DNA of 64,000 nt from an uncultured Mycoplasmatota bacterium (GCA_947649365.1 CANSRH010000003.1:12036-76035), one strand, 5' to 3'; positions 5,204 through 24,032 are shown, counted from the stretch's first letter. Numbers and translations are program-made. The notes: generated by a model from the sequence alone, not told the origin.

Positions 5204-6418
5204 ATGAATGAATTGGAACAAACAGGTAGAGAGATACCGAAAAAGAAGAAAGGAATTTTGATTGTCAGTATTTTGTTTGTGGTTTTTGTTTTACTTGGAA
5301 CTATTCTTTATCCTATCGTTGTTACAAAGCCTAAAAAAGTATTTACAACAGCAATAGATAAAGTTACTTCTTTAGCGAAACAAACTACCAAAGAAGACTT
5401 ACAACTTTATGGAGGAAGTTTTTCTTTGGAAATGGATTTAACGAGTAATGATAAAAATGCTCAGAAAGTCTTGGATATTTTGAATCAAATGCAACTAGGT
5501 TTTGCTTATAAAGTCGATTATGATGAAGAAAAAATGGTTATTGATTTACATACCGACTATAAGAAGAAAGATTTGTTGGACTTATCTATGTATTTTCATA
5601 AAAACGAGGCTTATGTTTTCTTGCAAGAAATTTATGATAAATATATAGAGGTAGAGGCAAAAGGGATAGAAGAACTTTTTTCTAGTAAAGAGAAAACCGA
5701 AGAGTATCAAATTCTATTGGAACAAGTAAAAAATGCTTTTCATAAATCTTTAAAGGATAGTTATTTTACGAAGGAAAAGATAACAATGACTATAGGAAAT
5801 AAAGATACAAAAGTTACTAAAAATATTTTCCATCTTACAGAAGAAAATTTAGAAGAGATTGTTCTTGTACTTAGTGAAGAACTTGATAATGATACTTTTC
5901 TTACGAATTATGCTTCCTTGAGCGGTAAAAGTGAAGATGAAATTCGTGATGCATTGGAAAGTTTAAAAAATGAGACCATTTCTTTAGAAGAAGATATGGA
6001 AATTGTTCTGTATACGGAAGGGATAAAAAATAATTTTGTCGGATTAGAGTTTAGTGATTTATCGGATACATTTGTTCTTTTAAAAGAGAACACTACTGAT
6101 TATTCTTATAAAATAAAAGCTGATAGAACTTCTATAACAGGCAGGTTATCATTAGAGAAAAAAGATAAGGATCTTCAAGGAACAATGACTATAAATAATG
6201 AAGAGCTTTCAGGTAGTATTTTATTTTCTTTTACAAGTGAAGAAGATGTAGTTATTGAAGATATTGATAAAAATGAAGTTGTTGATACAAATGCTATTTC
6301 TTTAGAAGATCAAGAAAAGATATTCAATGCTTTACAAGAAAAAGAAGGAATTAAAGAACTCCTACAAGAGTTTGAAAATTTATTTACTCCAAAATTATAC
6401 GATACACTAGATATGTAA
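5204..6418 (+). CDS. hypothetical membrane-anchored acidic protein
   Basis: 404 aa, single N-terminal TM (GILIVSILFVVFVLLGTILYPIVV) then long acidic extracytoplasmic region; RBS AAGGAG upstream; terminator after stop. Confidence 0.5.
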   Translation: MNELEQTGREIPKKKKGILIVSILFVVFVLLGTILYPIVVTKPKKVFTTAIDKVTSLAKQTTKEDLQLYGGSFSLEMDLTSNDKNAQKVLDILNQMQLGFAYKVDYDEEKMVIDLHTDYKKKDLLDLSMYFHKNEAYVFLQEIYDKYIEVEAKGIEELFSSKEKTEEYQILLEQVKNAFHKSLKDSYFTKEKITMTIGNKDTKVTKNIFHLTEENLEEIVLVLSEELDNDTFLTNYASLSGKSEDEIRDALESLKNETISLEEDMEIVLYTEGIKNNFVGLEFSDLSDTFVLLKENTTDYSYKIKADRTSITGRLSLEKKDKDLQGTMTINNEELSGSILFSFTSEEDVVIEDIDKNEVVDTNAISLEDQEKIFNALQEKEGIKELLQEFENLFTPKLYDTLDM

Positions 6419-6442
6419 AAAGACCATTTCAGGTCTTTTTCA
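6417..6442. terminator. bidirectional rho-independent terminator
   Basis: AAAGACC-atttca-GGTCTTT with flanking A-run and T-run between convergent genes. Confidence 0.65.
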
Positions 6443-6445
6443 TTG

Positions 6446-7294
6446 TTATTTTTTTCCATAGCGCGCATTAAACTTATCAATTTGGCTTCCTCTTTGTCTT
6501 TTTAAAGAAGAAGAATTTAATATTGGAGTTATATCATAGTATTCTCTTTTCTCTCTGTTTTCATAGGGATACATTGTAATAATATCCTTTGAATTTGCTA
6601 GTGTAATTACTTCTATATAATCCACTAATTTGTTATTTACGTGTCCATTGGCAAGATAGCCAAAAACATAAGAATTTTGAAAAGCACTAGGATTGTATCT
6701 TTTTTCTAGCGGTAATTTACTTCGAATTTCATAATAGGTCTTTTCTAAAGATACACTAGGTACAAATTGAATAGAGGAAGGTTCTGTATTTTCTTGCGGA
6801 CTTTGATGTTTTTGAATACATAACAAAGCTTCTTTTTCACTATAAGAGATAATTTGATTTATTAGATAACCGCTTCCATGCTCATAATCTTCTATAGTTA
6901 AAATATTTAATTTTCTTTTTAAAAAATAAATTAAACCTTTAAAAAACCATTTTCTATGATAAAAGAAACGTATATTTTTTTGAAGTAAATGATAACATTC
7001 TTCATATTTTTGTTGATAGCATAAAAGATTTATTTTCATCATAATAAAATCTTCATAAGTCAATAAAGAAGTTTTTTCTGAAAGTAATTCTTCTGCTATT
7101 TTTAACGTTTGTTCTGCTTCTTCTAAACGATTAGCTTTTATAAATGCATTTGCATAATATATATATCCTGCAGCATCTTTTGGATAAATTTTAATATACT
7201 TTTGGAATTCATTAAATGCTTCATTTAATCTGTATTCTTCTGTTAATTTCATTATTTTTTGAAAATATGTATCATGATAATATTTCTTTTCCAT
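6446..7294 (-). CDS. TPR-repeat containing hypothetical protein
   Basis: N-terminal TPR-like helices (YIYYANAFIKANRLEEAEQTLKIAEEL). Confidence 0.45.
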   Translation of the reverse strand: MEKKYYHDTYFQKIMKLTEEYRLNEAFNEFQKYIKIYPKDAAGYIYYANAFIKANRLEEAEQTLKIAEELLSEKTSLLTYEDFIMMKINLLCYQQKYEECYHLLQKNIRFFYHRKWFFKGLIYFLKRKLNILTIEDYEHGSGYLINQIISYSEKEALLCIQKHQSPQENTEPSSIQFVPSVSLEKTYYEIRSKLPLEKRYNPSAFQNSYVFGYLANGHVNNKLVDYIEVITLANSKDIITMYPYENREKREYYDITPILNSSSLKRQRGSQIDKFNARYGKK

Positions 7295-12593: not shown

Positions 12594-13799
12594 CTATTTT
12601 CTTTCTTTTTCTTCTGGTTTGTCAATATTTTTATCGTACGATATATCGCTGATTTGATAAGTTCGATTTTTAGAAATGAAACTTAATAATGAGGTGGATC
12701 CCCAACCGAGTACTGCTAATATAAAGAAGTAGATGACTCCAAACATTGTAAATTTTGGTTCTGATTTGGTGAGTAAGCTTATTATACTTGCTCCTGCACT
12801 CATGCTGGTTACTATAGTCAAACTATTGATAGATTTGCTTGTAACATCCGATTTTAAACCATTGAATAGTTTTTGAGCAGAAGTGACATAAGTTTGGGTC
12901 ATATCCCATAAATACTTAATGTAATCAAGTGTATCTTTTAAAGTTTCAAAACGGTATCCAGAGATAGCTAAGAATTCTGTAAGTTCTGCATCATTTTTAG
13001 CAATTCGTTCTCGAGTTCCAATATAGGTTCCCATTTGGTTGATTCTTCCATCAATTAAATTGATTGTTTTCGCGTATCCTTCTAGTTTTCCATTGAATTT
13101 AACAATGTCTGCTCCTTTTACATTTGCTTGTTCTTTAACACGATCAATTTTCTCCCATATTACACGATGCAAATTCAAATAACGATGAAGTTGTCCTTTG
13201 AATTCACGTATAAAAATTTGTTCTTCAATGTATTTTTCAATTTTGTCTAAAGATTGTTTTTTGTTGTTGATAAAATAATATTTGTCTCCTCTTACTACAT
13301 CGTATTTCGGATTACTAAATTCAAAATATTTTTGTTTTTCTGTACGAGATAATAAAACCGATATATCGTCTTTGGTTACATTGTCACAAATGATAAAATA
13401 CGGATATACGGTTTCAATATTGGCAAGCTCTTTTGGCACAGGAGCTCCTAGACTAAATAAATAGGATAAGGCTGGTGATAGTTTATTTTCATAATAGTCT
13501 GTGACTTTATCAATGTCTGCAAACAAAGTATCTTCAGACACTTTACGATTGTTTAAGGAAATCAGTCCGTCTTCGTAAATTTTTACAGCAATGTCAAAAG
13601 CCGTAGTGAATTCGATATACTCTTCTCCTGAAACGCCATAGACAATTTTTCCTATTCCTAAATTTTTATGAAGTTCGTCTAGTTTTTCTTGTTCTAAGCC
13701 CAACTTAGAAGATTTTGCTCTTAAAAAATCATAGATTTCTGTAAGTTGCAACATGGTTCTTTGAAACCATCCACCGATATAAACATTTGTTATTTTCAT
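12594..13799 (-). CDS. hypothetical membrane protein (two C-terminal TM helices)
   Basis: 401 aa soluble domain followed by two hydrophobic helices; family not recognised. Confidence 0.4.
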   Translation of the reverse strand: MKITNVYIGGWFQRTMLQLTEIYDFLRAKSSKLGLEQEKLDELHKNLGIGKIVYGVSGEEYIEFTTAFDIAVKIYEDGLISLNNRKVSEDTLFADIDKVTDYYENKLSPALSYLFSLGAPVPKELANIETVYPYFIICDNVTKDDISVLLSRTEKQKYFEFSNPKYDVVRGDKYYFINNKKQSLDKIEKYIEEQIFIREFKGQLHRYLNLHRVIWEKIDRVKEQANVKGADIVKFNGKLEGYAKTINLIDGRINQMGTYIGTRERIAKNDAELTEFLAISGYRFETLKDTLDYIKYLWDMTQTYVTSAQKLFNGLKSDVTSKSINSLTIVTSMSAGASIISLLTKSEPKFTMFGVIYFFILAVLGWGSTSLLSFISKNRTYQISDISYDKNIDKPEEKERK

Positions 13800-15669: not shown

Positions 15670-16062
15670 TTAAAAATTTATAGTAAACCAAAAAAAGATG
15701 CTTTCGCTTGGAATAGAACCTTTAAATACATACTTTCCACTTCCAAGTTTCGCCACAAAAAAGTTCGCGGTATCTTGGTATATACTTTCATTTAAATAAA
15801 TATCTAATGGACCACTGGATTCTTCATACGATGTATCTAAATATATTTCACTCTCTATGATATTTTTATTTATTTTGGTAGGTTTTTCACTCAATTTTTG
15901 TAAGTCTTCATTGTTATAATGAATCATAAATGAAAAAGATATGGTATTGAATAAATCATCCATTCCACTGATTGTGAAATTAATAAGTGGTATATATACT
16001 TCACCTAGTCTTTTCCCATCTTTGTATGTAACATTCATTATTGAATCAAAATAATATTCCAA
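15670..16062 (-). CDS. hypothetical protein
   Basis: 130-aa ORF, no family recognised. Confidence 0.35.
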   Translation of the reverse strand: MEYYFDSIMNVTYKDGKRLGEVYIPLINFTISGMDDLFNTISFSFMIHYNNEDLQKLSEKPTKINKNIIESEIYLDTSYEESSGPLDIYLNESIYQDTANFFVAKLGSGKYVFKGSIPSESIFFWFTINF

Positions 16063-17204: not shown

Positions 17205-17233
17205 AATACAAAAAGAACTATTTTTTAGTTCTC
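17205..17233 (-). terminator. rho-independent terminator downstream of the J-domain gene
   Basis: AGAACTA/TAGTTCT stem, T-run on minus strand. Confidence 0.4.
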
Positions 17234-17292: not shown

Positions 17293-19665
17293 TTACATTT
17301 TTTTATTTTCAAAGTTTTCTGTATTATTATAGTAATTAATATTTTGAGCAAATTGTAAATTAGCTTGTTCTTTCATAATTTCAATATAATCTTTCTTATT
17401 TTTAATAGCTATTTGATACATAGTTTGTTCTAATTCATATTCTTCTACTTTTCTACATTCCTCTGCAGTTAGAGACCAACTTGATATATCTTTCAGTCTT
17501 TTTTGTTCTTCACTTATTGCTCTTTTCTTTTCTTCATAATATGCTATTTCTGCAAATGCTCTTACTACATCTTGTTGGATTTGAGTAGTTGCTCTCGTTC
17601 TATTATTTATTACGTATTCTTGTTTTGCTTTTTCTCCTCGTAATTCTATTCTTTTACTTACTATTTGTAGTAGTACTTGTCTATAATCTTTTTCTTCTAG
17701 TTTTTTTTCTAATTCTTCTTGTTCCTTTTTTAATCCTTCCAATTCTCCGTTAACTTCGTTTCTTCTTCTTTCTTCTTCTGTTTTTGGTTGTTTTCTACTA
17801 TTTATATATTCCTCTTGTGTTTGTTTGTTTAAAAGACTAGCATATTTCTTTTCTGATATTTTTAACATTTTTGTTAAATCATCTTGTTCTAATTCATATT
17901 CTTCTACTTTTCTACATTCCTCTTCAGTTAGAGACCAACTTGATATACCTTCCAGTCTTTCTTGCTCTTCACTTATTGCTCTTTTCTTTTCTTCATAATA
18001 TGCTATTTCTGCAAATGTTCTCACTACATCTTGTTGGATTTGAGTAGTTACTCTTGTTCTATTATTTATTACGTATTCTAGTTTTGCTTTTTCTCCTCGT
18101 AATTCTATTCTTTCACTTTCTATTTGTAGTAGTACTTGTCTATAATCTTTTTCTTCTAGTTTTTTTTCTAATTCTTCTTGTTCCTTTTTTAATCCTTCCA
18201 ATTCTCCGTTAACTTCGTTTCTTCTTCTTTCTTCTTCTGTTTTTGGTTGTTTTCTACTATTTATATATTCCTCTTGTGTTTGTTTGTTTAAAAGACTAGC
18301 ATATTTCTTTTCTGATATTTTTAACATTTTTGTTAAATCATCTTGTTCTAATTCATATTCTTCTACTTTTTTATCTTCTTCTGCAGTACTTACCCAAAAT
18401 GATATATTTTTCAGTCTTTTTTGTTCTTCGCTTATTGCTCTTTTCTTTTCTTCATAATATGCTATTTCTGCACATATTCTCACTATATCTTTCTGGATTT
18501 GAATAGTTGCTCTTGTTCTATTATTTATTATGTATTCTAGTTTTGCTTTTTCTCCTCGTAATTCTATTCTTGCACTATATAATTTTATTTTTTCATTAGA
18601 ATCTTCCGAATTGTTAATTTTTATATTTATATTATCTATTCGTTCATTAATATATTTTAAAAATACATTATTTTTTTTTAATTCTTCAAAATCAAACGGT
18701 GTTGATTGTACTAGATTATTGATAATTAATTTATATTGTTGCAAGTATTGTATAGCATCAAATTCATTGTATTCGCATGCATCTGATTTGTATTTATCTA
18801 TCTTTTCTGTATGATTCTTTGCTTTTATCAGCAATAGTTCTAATTTTTTTTGATAGGTAATTGCATCATTTATTTTATTTTCAAAAACCATTATTAACAT
18901 ATTATTGAATTCTTGCTTTAACAATTCTACTTGTTCTTGTTCGGAAATACAAAATTTTCTTATTTCCTCTATTTTTAATTGCTTTTCTACAAATTGTTTG
19001 GCTTCTACAATGTTTTTTGGAATTTCACTTATTTGACTTTGTATTTTTGCAATTATTTGTTCTAACTCCTCTAATTCTAGTTGCATAGATAACTTTTGTG
19101 CTTCTTTGTGTAAAACTTTAAATTTATTTACATGCACTTTTAATAAATTTATAAGAATCTCATAGTTTTTTTTGTATAATTCTTCATTTAAAATATCACT
19201 ATAAGCTTTTAAAACTAGATTATCAATTGCCTCAGATACTTTCTCATCAATTTGAAAAGAATTTTTCTTTTCCATTGCAAATGCTTCCTTAATAGCTTTT
19301 TTTCTAGTAGCTTCCATTTCTTCATTTGAATAATTATTGAAATTAGGAGAAGTTGTACTTTTTTTCTCTTCTTTTTTTTGGTTATTTATTTCATTATTTG
19401 TATTTGTGGTTGTATTCAATCTTTTTTTATATTCTAAATCGTATTTTTCTCTTTTTACTGGGTTTGATAAAATTTCATATGCTACATTTATTTCTACAAT
19501 TTTTTTTGGATAAACTTCTTCAAATCCCGGATGTACGTCCGGATGAAACTCTTGTACTAATTTCCGATATGTTGACTTAATTTTTTTAATATCGCTATCA
19601 TATGAAATTCCTAATAATTTGTAGTAGTCACACCACTTGATTTCCCATGATTCTTTTACTTTCAT
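17293..19665 (-). CDS. J-domain (DnaJ-like, HPD) protein with long coiled-coil and about 2.5 tandem 153-aa repeats
   Basis: N-terminus DYYKLLGISYDSDIKKIKSTYRKLVQEFHPDVHPG...AYEILSNPVKREKYD is a canonical J domain; remainder Lys/Glu-rich heptad-like; GGGGGA RBS; 29 bp downstream of the vWA gene. Confidence 0.75.
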   Translation of the reverse strand: MKVKESWEIKWCDYYKLLGISYDSDIKKIKSTYRKLVQEFHPDVHPGFEEVYPKKIVEINVAYEILSNPVKREKYDLEYKKRLNTTTNTNNEINNQKKEEKKSTTSPNFNNYSNEEMEATRKKAIKEAFAMEKKNSFQIDEKVSEAIDNLVLKAYSDILNEELYKKNYEILINLLKVHVNKFKVLHKEAQKLSMQLELEELEQIIAKIQSQISEIPKNIVEAKQFVEKQLKIEEIRKFCISEQEQVELLKQEFNNMLIMVFENKINDAITYQKKLELLLIKAKNHTEKIDKYKSDACEYNEFDAIQYLQQYKLIINNLVQSTPFDFEELKKNNVFLKYINERIDNINIKINNSEDSNEKIKLYSARIELRGEKAKLEYIINNRTRATIQIQKDIVRICAEIAYYEEKKRAISEEQKRLKNISFWVSTAEEDKKVEEYELEQDDLTKMLKISEKKYASLLNKQTQEEYINSRKQPKTEEERRRNEVNGELEGLKKEQEELEKKLEEKDYRQVLLQIESERIELRGEKAKLEYVINNRTRVTTQIQQDVVRTFAEIAYYEEKKRAISEEQERLEGISSWSLTEEECRKVEEYELEQDDLTKMLKISEKKYASLLNKQTQEEYINSRKQPKTEEERRRNEVNGELEGLKKEQEELEKKLEEKDYRQVLLQIVSKRIELRGEKAKQEYVINNRTRATTQIQQDVVRAFAEIAYYEEKKRAISEEQKRLKDISSWSLTAEECRKVEEYELEQTMYQIAIKNKKDYIEIMKEQANLQFAQNINYYNNTENFENKKM
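17425..18590. repeat. intragenic tandem repeat, period 459 bp (153 codons), about 2.5 copies
   Basis: landmark taattcatat recurs at 17431, 17890, 18349; copies about 95% identical, with a roughly 230-bp stretch apparently identical between copies A and B. Confidence 0.9.
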
Positions 19666-19694
19666 ACGATTTCCCCCTTATATAGCTTCCCTTT

Positions 19695-20531
19695 TTATTT
19701 TTTGTTTAATCTTAATGTAGTATCATCATCTGTTAGATTTGGCGTATTTTCTTTTCCAGTCGTTAATAAATAATGAGCATCAATTTTCTTACTCCAATCG
19801 TTTGTAACTTTTCCATTTAATCTTAATTGTTTAATTACTTCATTTGCTGCATCAATTACTAATTGAACTCCATCCATATCTTTGCTAAAATTTCTAGCTC
19901 GATTTTTCGGAATTCCTATTTTTGTTGCTAACTTTATCGCTTCAATTCCTTCAGCAAGTAAGAAAAATTCTCTTCCTTTTGCTAATTGGCTTTCAATAAG
20001 CGTTTTTAATTTTTCTGCAGCACCATATTTACTTTCATTATCTTCACCATCTGTTTCCATCAAGAAAAATACTTTTTCATTTGCATTTGGATATTTGGCG
20101 TCGAAATTGTTAATTTCCTCAATGGCAGTGTCATATAGTCTTGTATATCCAGATGTGTATATTGATATAGGTTTTGCATCTTTTGCTAATATATCGTTGT
20201 GTTCTTTTTTTGCAATACTATTAAATAAAACAGTTGTTATTCGAACATTGTAATTTTTTTGTTCATCTAACAATTTAACAATTGCTTGTTCGGTGGCAAG
20301 TTCTGTACCAGCCATAGACTGACTAATATCTAGTAACAGAATTGCATGCACTACTTGGCGCATTTCTGATGCAACAGTATCAATGTTTTCATAAACCATA
20401 GCATCGATATTTCCTAGTACATCTGTATAATCAATACTATCCGCTAAATCTGCTAAAGATGTATCTTCACTTAATGTAAGACTATTCTTATCTTGTATTT
20501 TCATATTTTCCAATTTCTCACTTAAATTCAT
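19695..20531 (-). CDS. von Willebrand factor A (vWA) domain protein, cytoplasmic
   Basis: MIDAS DxSxS (DISQSMAG) after a beta-strand (HAILLL), later ETDGEDNES (TDG-type motif); no signal peptide; GGGGAG RBS 6 nt before ATG. Confidence 0.7.
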   Translation of the reverse strand: MNLSEKLENMKIQDKNSLTLSEDTSLADLADSIDYTDVLGNIDAMVYENIDTVASEMRQVVHAILLLDISQSMAGTELATEQAIVKLLDEQKNYNVRITTVLFNSIAKKEHNDILAKDAKPISIYTSGYTRLYDTAIEEINNFDAKYPNANEKVFFLMETDGEDNESKYGAAEKLKTLIESQLAKGREFFLLAEGIEAIKLATKIGIPKNRARNFSKDMDGVQLVIDAANEVIKQLRLNGKVTNDWSKKIDAHYLLTTGKENTPNLTDDDTTLRLNKK

Positions 20532-20565: not shown

Positions 20566-20595
20566 ATTATAACCCCCCCCCCGACTTTTTGTCAA
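20566..20595 (-). promoter_or_regulatory. sigma-A-type promoter with homopolymeric G10 tract in the -35/-10 spacer (candidate phase-variation switch) for the vWA/J-domain operon
   Basis: minus strand reads TTGACA-aaaagtc-GGGGGGGGGG-t-TATAAT (18-nt spacer), then GGGGAG RBS and ATG at 20531. Confidence 0.6.
20573..20582. repeat. homopolymeric C10/G10 tract
   Basis: only G/C homopolymer longer than 5 nt noted in this AT-rich window. Confidence 0.95.
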
Positions 20596-20726
20596 ATTAC
20601 AAATTATGATGATTGTCAATAGATAATCAAAAAAAGAGACATGTCAAAAAAATTTTAGTGAAAAACTAAAATAAATAACCAATAAAGAAAAACTTTATTG
20701 CTAGAAATAGTATGAATTTTTATTTT

Positions 20727-20771
20727 GTTAGTCAAGGTTAAAAGAACTCACGATGTTCGCCCTTGACTAAC
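20727..20771. repeat. perfect 11-bp inverted repeat GTTAGTCAAGG-N23-CCTTGACTAAC
   Basis: seen directly; followed by T-run on the plus strand; lies between the phase-variable promoter and the upstream gene's terminator. Confidence 0.8.
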
Positions 20772-20890
20772 TTTTTATAAATTAAAAATCTATAAAATTC
20801 TCTAGCTTTTTTACTAAGTATTTTTCTGGTACTCCTCATATTTTTTAAAATAGATTATCGCTCACATACTAAACTTATTTACAAAAGAAA

Positions 20891-20919
20891 AGACTGTTGA
20901 CTTTATTTGTCAACAGTCT
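20891..20919 (-). terminator. rho-independent terminator of the thioredoxin-like gene
   Basis: AGACTGTTGAC-tttattt-GTCAACAGTCT, T-rich on minus strand. Confidence 0.6.
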
Positions 20920-22979: not shown

Positions 22980-24032
22980 TTAACTAAATTTTTCAATATC
23001 ATCAATATTTGCAGCGAAATAAGGTAACTCTTTCTCTTTTTCTTTTAAAAATAAGACAAAGTCTTTGTCAAAATGAAATTTACGTTGGAATGTATCCTGT
23101 GATGTAATTGAGTTTTTTGCATGCATACCAGCTTCACTTTTTAGTTTTCCACCTTGTTCGTTAAGGTCAAAAGATATCGTTTGCAATGCTTTTTCAATCC
23201 AATATTCTTCTCCGTTTGCAAAAGTAAAGATTTTCTTTTCTAATTCTGTAAATTCGTTTTTTAATTTTATATTTAAGTAAGGCACTTTTAAGGTATCACC
23301 TTTGGTAAATGCTTTTGTTTCTGTTTTACTTTTTTCTTCTACTTCATCCCATATTTCTTTAAAGTTCGTTTTTTCTGCTCCTCGAAGAAGTATGATTTCT
23401 TCGTCTTCTTGCGTTTTTAACAAGATGGCAAATTCGTTTTCATTGTTATAATAAAGAACATTTACTTGGTTATATGTTTCTTCATTTGTACTATTATCGA
23501 TTCCAAAATATTTTACATTTTTTGTGTTTTTAAAGTTTCCTTTTTCTAGTTTTGTAAAGACTTTTGGAAATTGAAATTCCTTTTTCAACATGGTATATAA
23601 AAAGTAATCTTCTGTTTTTCCTTCTGTCCATTCAAAATCGTCTAAAATGGTACTGGTTTCGTTCCATTTCTTTTTTATTTCTTCTTCAATTTCTTTTTTT
23701 AAGTCTAGTGTTGCTAGTCCATATTTTTTTATATAACTACTTTCTTTTAAATTGTCTTTCGTAAAGGTTCCTTTGTTTAAATTTTCTATGCTTTGTGTTT
23801 GTGGATGGAATACTATTTCTTGTTTGACAATTTCTTCTTTTAAATCATTCCATAGCAAGTTGAATGTTCCACACCAAATGGAATTTTTTGTAATGTTGTC
23901 TTCTAATGAAAGTACTACATCGATGTCACTTGGATGATATTCCTGTTTTTTTATTTCTTTGAATGTATAAGCTCCTATTACCATTACCAATAAAAGTGCT
24001 CCTAGAATTGGTTTGATTCTTTCTTTTTTCAT
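22980..24032 (-). CDS. hypothetical secreted protein
   Basis: signal peptide then Lys/Glu-rich 330-aa domain. Confidence 0.45.
   Translation of the reverse strand: MKKERIKPILGALLLVMVIGAYTFKEIKKQEYHPSDIDVVLSLEDNITKNSIWCGTFNLLWNDLKEEIVKQEIVFHPQTQSIENLNKGTFTKDNLKESSYIKKYGLATLDLKKEIEEEIKKKWNETSTILDDFEWTEGKTEDYFLYTMLKKEFQFPKVFTKLEKGNFKNTKNVKYFGIDNSTNEETYNQVNVLYYNNENEFAILLKTQEDEEIILLRGAEKTNFKEIWDEVEEKSKTETKAFTKGDTLKVPYLNIKLKNEFTELEKKIFTFANGEEYWIEKALQTISFDLNEQGGKLKSEAGMHAKNSITSQDTFQRKFHFDKDFVLFLKEKEKELPYFAANIDDIEKFS

Follow-up and report, generated by a model that had tools for sequence, protein, structure and literature searches.

We describe a two-gene operon on the minus strand of a 64-kb stretch of DNA of ~28% GC from an uncultured Mycoplasmatota bacterium (GCA_947649365.1 CANSRH010000003.1:12036-76035; hereafter the window, in whose coordinates positions are given). 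Gene 1 (19695-20531) encodes a 278-aa cytoplasmic protein with a von Willebrand factor A (vWA) domain and its metal ion-dependent adhesion site (MIDAS), in a long form defined below; gene 2 (17293-19665) encodes a 790-aa class-C J-domain protein, all-helical beyond the J domain and without a transmembrane (TM) segment. The pair is a strictly conserved operon that occurs in many uncultured Firmicutes and is, as far as we could find, previously undescribed. The reading that we favor, at a probability of roughly 0.55, is that gene 2 encodes a specialized J protein and gene 1 its dedicated vWA partner, both acting with the housekeeping DnaK.

Conservation of the gene pair

A word-indexed search returned only seven close relatives for gene 1 and a single relative for gene 2; the closest genome is a metagenome-assembled genome (MAG) from wild mice labeled "uncultured Bacilli bacterium." An alignment of close gene 1 sequences retrieved nothing further from metagenome and viral collections, and one MAG among genome contigs. 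In each close relative with visible downstream DNA (L002-L004, L006/L007, L008, and L001+L005), the J gene is the next gene downstream. An exhaustive profile search with gene 1 recovered 5,507 relatives (cluster representatives), 706 of them at E <= 1e-10, and revealed two architectures in the family: a short form of ~210 to 230 aa, consisting of nothing but the vWA core, and a long form of ~270 to 300 aa, in which the core is joined by an N-terminal extension of ~60 aa and by a C-terminal tail that follows a conserved "DWS" helix. When a neighbor-joining tree was built from the core only, 47 of the 52 long forms fell in a pure clade that contains the window clade.

The two architectures differ sharply in their neighbors. 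At all 11 long-form loci inspected (the window clade; P0017/P0160; P0162, P0056, and P0161; L018/19; P0176; and P0032), a DnaJ-domain gene lies directly downstream on the same strand, at a gap of 1 to 153 bp, and these loci cover at least six deep lineages (vWA identity <=30%) and at least five genomic contexts. No J-domain neighbor was found at any of 84 short-form loci (78 metagenome, 3 phage, and 3 plasmid). The association of the long-form vWA protein with a J protein that has a homologous post-J domain is ancient and strict. This census in effect refutes the explanation that unrelated genes happen to be cotranscribed in this genome only, to which we attach next to no probability; adjacency in 11 of 11 long-form loci of such low identity and such varied context, against 0 of 84 in the sister clade, is not what fortuitous neighbors would give. 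An earlier note on this DNA, drawn from its sequence alone, had asked whether the pairing recurs elsewhere, and it does so far beyond this species. The note had also named in advance three outcomes that would speak against its proposal, namely, no co-occurrence elsewhere, loss of the HPD motif from gene 2, and a match to a known family; all three were checked, and the pairing was found to recur, the HPD to be intact, and no known family to match.

In one lineage (L103), the vWA-J pair comes after four consecutive genes (L103 1-4942) whose products are ~480 to 500 aa long, one of them matching WG_beta_rep, and before a gene for a 450-aa sigma-70-like protein (L103 7864-9216); the pair may be part of a larger operon in that lineage.

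The vWA protein

The product of gene 1 is a genuine vWA protein despite its score of 15.5 bits against the Pfam VWA model (PF00092), which is below the gathering threshold (cutoff, 23.8); among 24 relatives of gene 1, 12 reach E < 0.01 with this model. The assignment follows from a match at 3e-22 to phrog_7371 ("vWA domain-containing protein"), members of which pass the Pfam cutoff (28 bits for that of phage Coruscant), and from the AlphaFold2 (AF2) model, whose core (residues 60 to 235; predicted local distance difference test [pLDDT] of about 80 to 90) matches vWA domains of known structure: the top 50 Foldseek matches in the PDB were all vWA or integrin I domains (integrin/ANTXR/TRAP), with E values to 8e-10 and a probability of 1.0. 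The vWA core (residues 59 to 238; 19818..20357, minus strand) contains the complete MIDAS that had been read from the sequence, with D68-x-S70-x-S72 (nucleotides 20316-20330), T130, and D161, and these residues are invariant in 51 to 52 of the 52 long forms. As also claimed earlier for gene 1, no signal peptide was found in its product, nor was a TM segment; the same is true of the product of gene 2.

The N-terminal extension (residues 1 to 58; 20358..20531, minus strand) is acidic and predicted to be helical, with an AF2 pLDDT of <50. It is common to about 50 distant long-form clusters, with the consensus MSFSLDDLKK...L..LK, and is confined to vWA proteins that have a J-domain neighbor, which makes it the best candidate for a docking element. 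Such strict co-occurrence of the extension and the J protein would also suit an arrangement in which the vWA protein is neither adaptor nor client but a regulator in the style of CbpM, binding the J protein and gating its access to DnaK or to the real client. A small operon-encoded partner specific for a J protein is known from CbpA-CbpM (PMC8215388). We nevertheless think a regulator distinctly unlikely, as the fully conserved MIDAS argues for metal-dependent ligand capture over simple occlusion, the gene order and partner size are unlike those of cbpAM, and gene 1 shows no sequence relation to CbpM.

The C-terminal tail (residues 239 to 278; 19698..19817, minus strand), which reads "DWSKKIDAHYLLTTGK...TTLRLNKK," is disordered in the model. 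Long-form tails often have the pattern N-x-L-x-L-G-G ... L-[KR]-L-G-G-[KR], as in P0162 (ENNRLRLTGG...ILKLK), and a terminal L-x-L-G-[GNSR] is present in 18 to 19 of 52 long forms versus 0 of 82 short forms; the tail of the window protein is a degenerate version of this family motif (AHYLLTTGK...LRLNKK). The classic DnaK model peptide is NRLLLTG, and the Leu-rich, basic-flanked long-form tails appear, by their residues, to resemble DnaK-binding peptides, which we take as a lead. Long-form C termini (P0162, P0032, P0097, and others; 19698-19817 in the window) resemble the ubiquitin tail LRLRGG as well as NRLLLTG; no ubiquitin-like conjugation or protease genes were found linked to long-form vWA genes.

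The J-domain protein

The J domain of gene 2 (residues 13 to 76; 19438..19629, minus strand) scores 65.8 bits against Pfam DnaJ (PF00226; cutoff, 27.8; 3.7e-18) and is canonical, as the earlier note had it, with the HPD (residues 41 to 43, at 19537-19545), YRKL, and KRxxYD features. The profile hidden Markov model searches proposed at the outset placed gene 2 above the DnaJ threshold and left gene 1 below that for VWA. The HPD is conserved in every J partner, and because the J domain is intact, we infer that gene 2 is coupled to Hsp70. No G/F region, zinc finger, or DnaJ C-terminal domain was found in gene 2, and no Pfam domain other than J. The DnaJ_bact model aligned through its profile positions 1 to 109 only (68.6 bits; cutoff, 377). 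TopJ, the J protein of the Mycoplasma terminal organelle, was considered and rejected: its model (NF037946) gave 54 bits versus 300 and aligned with the J domain only (positions 6 to 67 of 810). Since the NCBIfam DnaJ and TopJ models match nothing beyond the J domain, the product of gene 2 is a class-C J protein.

In the AF2 model (predicted TM score, 0.28), the J domain is followed by a disordered linker (residues 86 to 112) and thereafter by helices only; the non-J part has no PDB relative by sequence. The earlier note had described the whole of the remaining 700 aa as built from 153-aa repeats. The repeats are real, forming a tandem helical array of 459 bp per unit (17425..18576, minus strand; 2.5 copies at 94% nucleotide identity according to Tandem Repeats Finder), but they span residues ~364 to 747 only, where the AF2 model is helical, and residues ~100 to 360 are a unique, conserved helical region. 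The post-J helical domain (residues ~99 to 300; 18766..19371, minus strand) is conserved in the J proteins that accompany long-form vWA proteins: the window-clade profile matches the L103 partner (2e-9) and the L104 partner (1.6e-6) co-linearly, and hhalign relates it to the L013/L017 partners with a probability of 88% and an E value of 3e-6 over 134 columns. On the strength of these alignments of the post-J domain, we regard the J partners as orthologs.

The 153-aa repeats are by comparison peculiar to the window clade and not general to the family of pairs. The L005 partner has about two repeat copies and no TM segment, and the L008 partner has no repeat copy; in gene 2 itself, the maximum 19-residue hydropathy is 0.51, and no C-terminal TM anchor is present. 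J partners outside the window clade (e.g., L013, L017, L102, L103, and L104) each have one or two C-terminal TM-like segments. Because every partner outside the window clade ends in TM-like segments and the window and L005 proteins have repeats, a membrane-anchored J protein is likely to be the ancestral form and the repeat scaffold a form derived in the window clade. J partners also vary in length and integrity: that of L008 (1820-2635) is short (271 aa), that of L101 (1713-3447) is split (190+357 aa), and those of L018/L019 (~5787-6582) are fragmented by stops.

Promoter and poly-G tract

Genes 1 and 2 are 29 bp apart on one strand, each is preceded by a good ribosome-binding site of the GGGGA type, and they form a single transcription unit, in agreement with the earlier note. 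Selection on both genes is purifying (ratio of nonsynonymous to synonymous substitution rates [dN/dS], 0.14 to 0.35), with a dN/dS of 0.14 to 0.35 for gene 1 and 0.27 to 0.30 for the N-terminal 375 aa of gene 2. Both are driven by a promoter of the SigA/sigma-70 type, TTGACA-N18-TATAAT (20566..20595, minus strand), with a 12/12 match; the pattern occurs once in the window, and 0 of 100 shuffles yielded such a site.

Inside the promoter spacer lies a poly-G tract, G10 (C10 on the plus strand; 20573..20582, minus strand), which is the sole G/C run of >=7 across the 64 kb and a candidate slipped-strand switch: a tract of G9 would give a spacer of 17 nt, G10 one of 18 nt, and G11 one of 19 nt. In L002 and L004, contigs of the same species, the tract is G11, and the sequence is otherwise identical for ~200 bp on either side. 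A third contig, L003, also has G11, but here the tract is fused to homopolymer junk; the start of this contig (L003 1-114) consists of poly-C/poly-G joined to the promoter G-tract, probably a sequencing or assembly artifact, so that tract lengths from these assemblies need read-level confirmation. What was found corresponds to a promoter-spacer simple sequence repeat in the usual sense, that is, a homopolymer of at least 8 between the -35 and -10 boxes whose length differs between strains, as seen in three sequences at the assembly level only. The L006/L007 lineage (83% protein identity) has its own TTGACA promoter with G7 in the spacer, and in L006 the 5' untranslated region between the -10 box and the ATG shows no difference from that of the window; the L001 lineage (73% identity) has an ordinary promoter with no G-tract. 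On this comparison, a phase-variable promoter is plausible, and it would be particular to this sublineage rather than family-wide.

The spacer-length arrangement is that of Neisseria porA/opc, where it sets the expression level. At porA/opc and at the poly-G tracts of Treponema pallidum tpr genes, a G-tract likewise lies between -35 and -10, its length sets the spacer, and it is polymorphic between strains; the candidate switch described here differs in being located in a low-GC gut Firmicute and in controlling cytoplasmic proteins.

Surface antigens are the typical targets of poly-G promoter switches (compare PMC7864442 and PMC5084427), and we considered whether the operon encodes a phase-variable surface structure, in which an exported vWA protein and a coiled-coil repeat protein would form an adhesin or fibril, in the manner of vWA-tipped pili or M-like proteins. 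This would account for both the poly-G switch and the repeats; the repeat region of gene 2 is coiled-coil-like, and some short forms from Fusobacterium carry a signal peptide. Signal peptides, TM segments, and sorting motifs are, however, absent from both proteins of the pair, J domains serve the cytosolic Hsp70 and the HPD is conserved, and the tail-anchored orthologous partners place the J domain in the cytoplasm. We regard a surface structure as very improbable.

Surroundings of the operon

The 5' limit of the unit is set by the terminator of the upstream thioredoxin-like gene (20891..20919, minus strand; 11-bp stem with 5 GC pairs). At its other end, the single downstream terminator that had been proposed corresponds to a hairpin that is there but weak: the terminator-like structure closing the unit (~17208..17233, minus strand) has an 8-bp stem, a 5-nt loop, and a U-run in the centroid structure, and it is absent from the output of the consensus terminator scan for that region. 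The neighbors of the pair in the window are ordinary chromosomal genes (GNAT, endonuclease, tRNA_edit protein, PAP2-DAGK, thioredoxin-like protein, and acyltransferase), and an Rfam scan of the window returned no element. Pfam matched none of three neighboring open reading frames (12594-13799, 401 aa; 15670-16062, 130 aa; and 22980-24032, 350 aa); the last has a hydrophobic segment at its N terminus. An inverted repeat (20715-20783) with 23-nt arms and a perfect core, TTAGTCAAGG / CCTTGACTAA, separated by 23 nt, is located ~120 bp upstream of the promoter with the poly-G tract and may serve as an operator or form an RNA hairpin.

The short-form sister clade

The short-form family (phrog_7371; phages, plasmids, and gut Firmicutes) has a homologous vWA core (~25 to 40% identity), the same MIDAS, and a "DW" helix. 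It differs from gene 1 in lacking the N-terminal extension and the L-x-L-G-G tail, and it has no J neighbor but, instead, Macro-domain and ADP-ribosylglycohydrolase (ARH) neighbors. A Macro-domain gene (~336 aa, codirectional) lies just upstream of the short-form vWA gene at 59 to 61 of 78 metagenome loci (L020-L097), and an ARH gene lies downstream of it at 12 of the 78. One short-form locus of this Macro/ARH context is L010 (3438-5663), and the phage PV036457 has the same Macro-x-vWA gene order. The protein P0025 (502 aa) has an ARH-like N-terminal sequence and a vWA core at residues ~270 to 499, from which it may be an ARH-vWA fusion. In two unrelated actinophages, Gordonia phage Forza (L011 1-4621) and Streptomyces phage Coruscant (L012 3980-6049), the phrog_7371 vWA gene abuts a tRNA array.

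In the literature, the ARG-centric ADP-ribose-reversal systems include vWA proteins as one of several peptide-binding chaperones, and ARG/Macro-centered neighborhoods with an optional vWA gene have been proposed to counter viral ADP-ribosylation (PMC9503650). The short-form Macro/ARH loci may be related to these systems. For the window pair, membership in an ARG/Macro-centered system was rejected, as no linked ARH or Macro gene was found at the window or at the other long-form loci.

The company kept by the sister clade bears on a further explanation, that the pair is a conflict or defense module, either an Hsp70-dependent sensor or an abortive-infection system, in which the vWA protein would capture a phage protein or a modified host protein and the J protein, whose ancestral form would have had a TM hairpin, would be the effector or scaffold; phase variation would limit the cost of carriage. 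The closest relatives of the vWA core are found in phages and mobile elements, and the sister clade occupies Macro/ARH neighborhoods whose published analog, to which we liken them by description, is proposed to be antiviral. Genomic context differs between close relatives, the J protein is repetitive and fast-evolving in its C-terminal half, and the promoter is a candidate for phase variation. There is also a reported precedent in which DnaJ participates in phage sensing by bNACHT25 (PMC12169576). Set against these points, PADLOC-DB 2.0 gave no significant match (for gene 1, only PDC-M38B at an E value of 0.004 and 14.7 bits over 67 residues; for gene 2, none), neither protein has a recognizable effector domain, and housekeeping neighbors rather than defense islands surround the pair, at the window as at the other loci. 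We therefore hold a defense module to be possible though doubtful; it concerns the biological role, moreover, and is compatible with the adaptor mechanism that we favor.

Comparison with known systems

The earlier note knew of no described bacterial system that pairs a vWA protein with a J protein, and our searches agree: no two-gene vWA-plus-J system was found in the literature, and no characterized family matched the pair. Its analogies to TerY and to MoxR did not hold as family membership. For the "TerY-P" triad of TerY/YegL, hhalign against E. coli YegL gave a probability of 22%, BLASTP aligned the DxSxS segment only, and no Ser/Thr kinase or PP2C phosphatase gene was found near the window pair; by these alignments, YegL appears to be only generically related to gene 1. 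For MoxR-vWA, no MoxR/AAA+ gene was found among the neighbors in the window, nor any conserved AAA+ gene in the related long-form loci. In E. coli K-12, the Hsp70-family gene yegD adjoins the kinase/phosphatase/vWA triad yegI-pphC-yegL (yegD-yegI-yegJ-pphC-yegL, L105 4675-10129), which is a second instance of a vWA gene near a gene of the Hsp70 system.

As an analogy of logic, MoxR-vWA remains instructive. vWA domains have been viewed as Mg2+-dependent peptide-binding cochaperones (PMC7159879, PMC9503650), and in RavA-ViaA, NorQ-NorD, CbbQ-CbbO, and the MoxR-vWA ternary conflict systems (PMC7159879), a gene for a MIDAS vWA protein likewise adjoins that of an ATP-driven chaperone component; in the window pair, the chaperone link is a J domain, with Hsp70 in trans, and the vWA protein has family-specific N- and C-terminal extensions. 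HscB-IscU(-HscA) and CbpA-CbpM similarly have a J protein encoded together with a dedicated client or modulator, the J protein conferring Hsp70 specificity (PMC8215388). Here, sequence relation to those systems is restricted to the J domain, the partner is a vWA/MIDAS protein, and there is no dedicated Hsp70. The E. coli proteins DjlB and DjlC, which are tail anchored and partner with HscC (PMC8215388), have the architecture of the distant gene 2 orthologs (J domain, helical middle, and TM anchor); window gene 2, which we liken to them by architecture, lacks the TM segment, has no hscC-like gene nearby, and has no NCBIfam match beyond J. The sole published bacterial context that we found in which vWA, Hsp70, and a J domain come under one heading is that of the GAP1-N2 GTPase-centric systems, where a vWA fusion and a set with Hsp70, GrpE, and an FNIII-DnaJ fusion are separate neighborhood themes (PMC7159879). 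Those systems are multigene, are built around a GTPase, and have their own Hsp70 and GrpE; none of those genes is found at the window pair.

Proposed mechanism and implications

Our combined results suggest how a specialized J protein and a dedicated vWA partner might act together. The J domain would recruit ATP-bound housekeeping DnaK; we name the housekeeping protein because no Hsp70 gene was found in the module or elsewhere in the 64-kb window. Docking of the vWA protein would fall to the post-J helical domain, with the N-terminal extension of the former as the most likely point of contact, and at its Mg2+/MIDAS site the vWA protein would bind an acidic residue, either on a target or on the scaffold. 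The vWA tail, Leu-rich and flanked by basic residues, is a candidate for the segment that enters the substrate-binding domain of DnaK. Overall, Hsp70 would drive the loading, release, or remodeling of a vWA-bound complex, and the pair would thereby be an Hsp70/J counterpart of the MoxR-vWA pairs that follows the "J protein plus dedicated client" logic of HscB-IscU. The ancestral J protein would have used a TM hairpin at its C terminus as a membrane anchor; in the window clade, the apparent replacement of this anchor by the 153-aa repeats suggests a soluble or self-associating scaffold. Expression would be set by the poly-G tract (G9/G10/G11), giving heritable and reversible high, low, or off states.

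Several observations weigh against this reading. No Hsp70 gene is linked to the pair in any of its loci, so that which Hsp70 it works with is an assumption. The DnaK-binding role of the tail rests on resemblance, and the motif is degenerate in the window (LRLNKK) and clear in ~35% of long forms. The short or split J partners (L008, L101, and L018/19) suggest decay, sequencing errors, or a C-terminal part that is dispensable. Finally, the G-tract lengths are derived from assemblies of three related samples, and one of the contigs has adjacent homopolymer junk.

As to what the pair does for the cell, defense, an envelope or membrane function, and a stress response are all possible roles; the first is attractive because of the Macro/ARH and phage links of the sister clade. 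In a bolder version, which we put forward tentatively as a minority possibility, the pairing of a long-form vWA protein with a membrane-anchored J protein would be a widespread and hitherto overlooked Hsp70-powered counterpart of MoxR-vWA, in which the MIDAS adaptor captures a target and the J protein fires DnaK at the membrane, in defense or under envelope stress, with phase variation added in this lineage. The captured target might then be phage modified or ADP-ribosylated, given the Macro/ARH links of the sister clade.

For an uncultured gut Firmicute of low GC content, the poly-G promoter is a rare example of what is likely to be phase variation through the promoter spacer, and the proteins under its control are cytoplasmic. 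At the level of the family, a large and unannotated group of vWA proteins splits into two clades with mutually exclusive partners, a J protein in one and Macro/ARH proteins in the other, which offers a handle on the functions of both. J-domain proteins determine where Hsp70 acts, and to our knowledge, the clients of most class-C J proteins in bacteria have yet to be identified. In the family described here, gene order fixes the candidate partner of the J protein, which suggests a testable client or adaptor relation and perhaps an Hsp70 equivalent of the MoxR-vWA systems.

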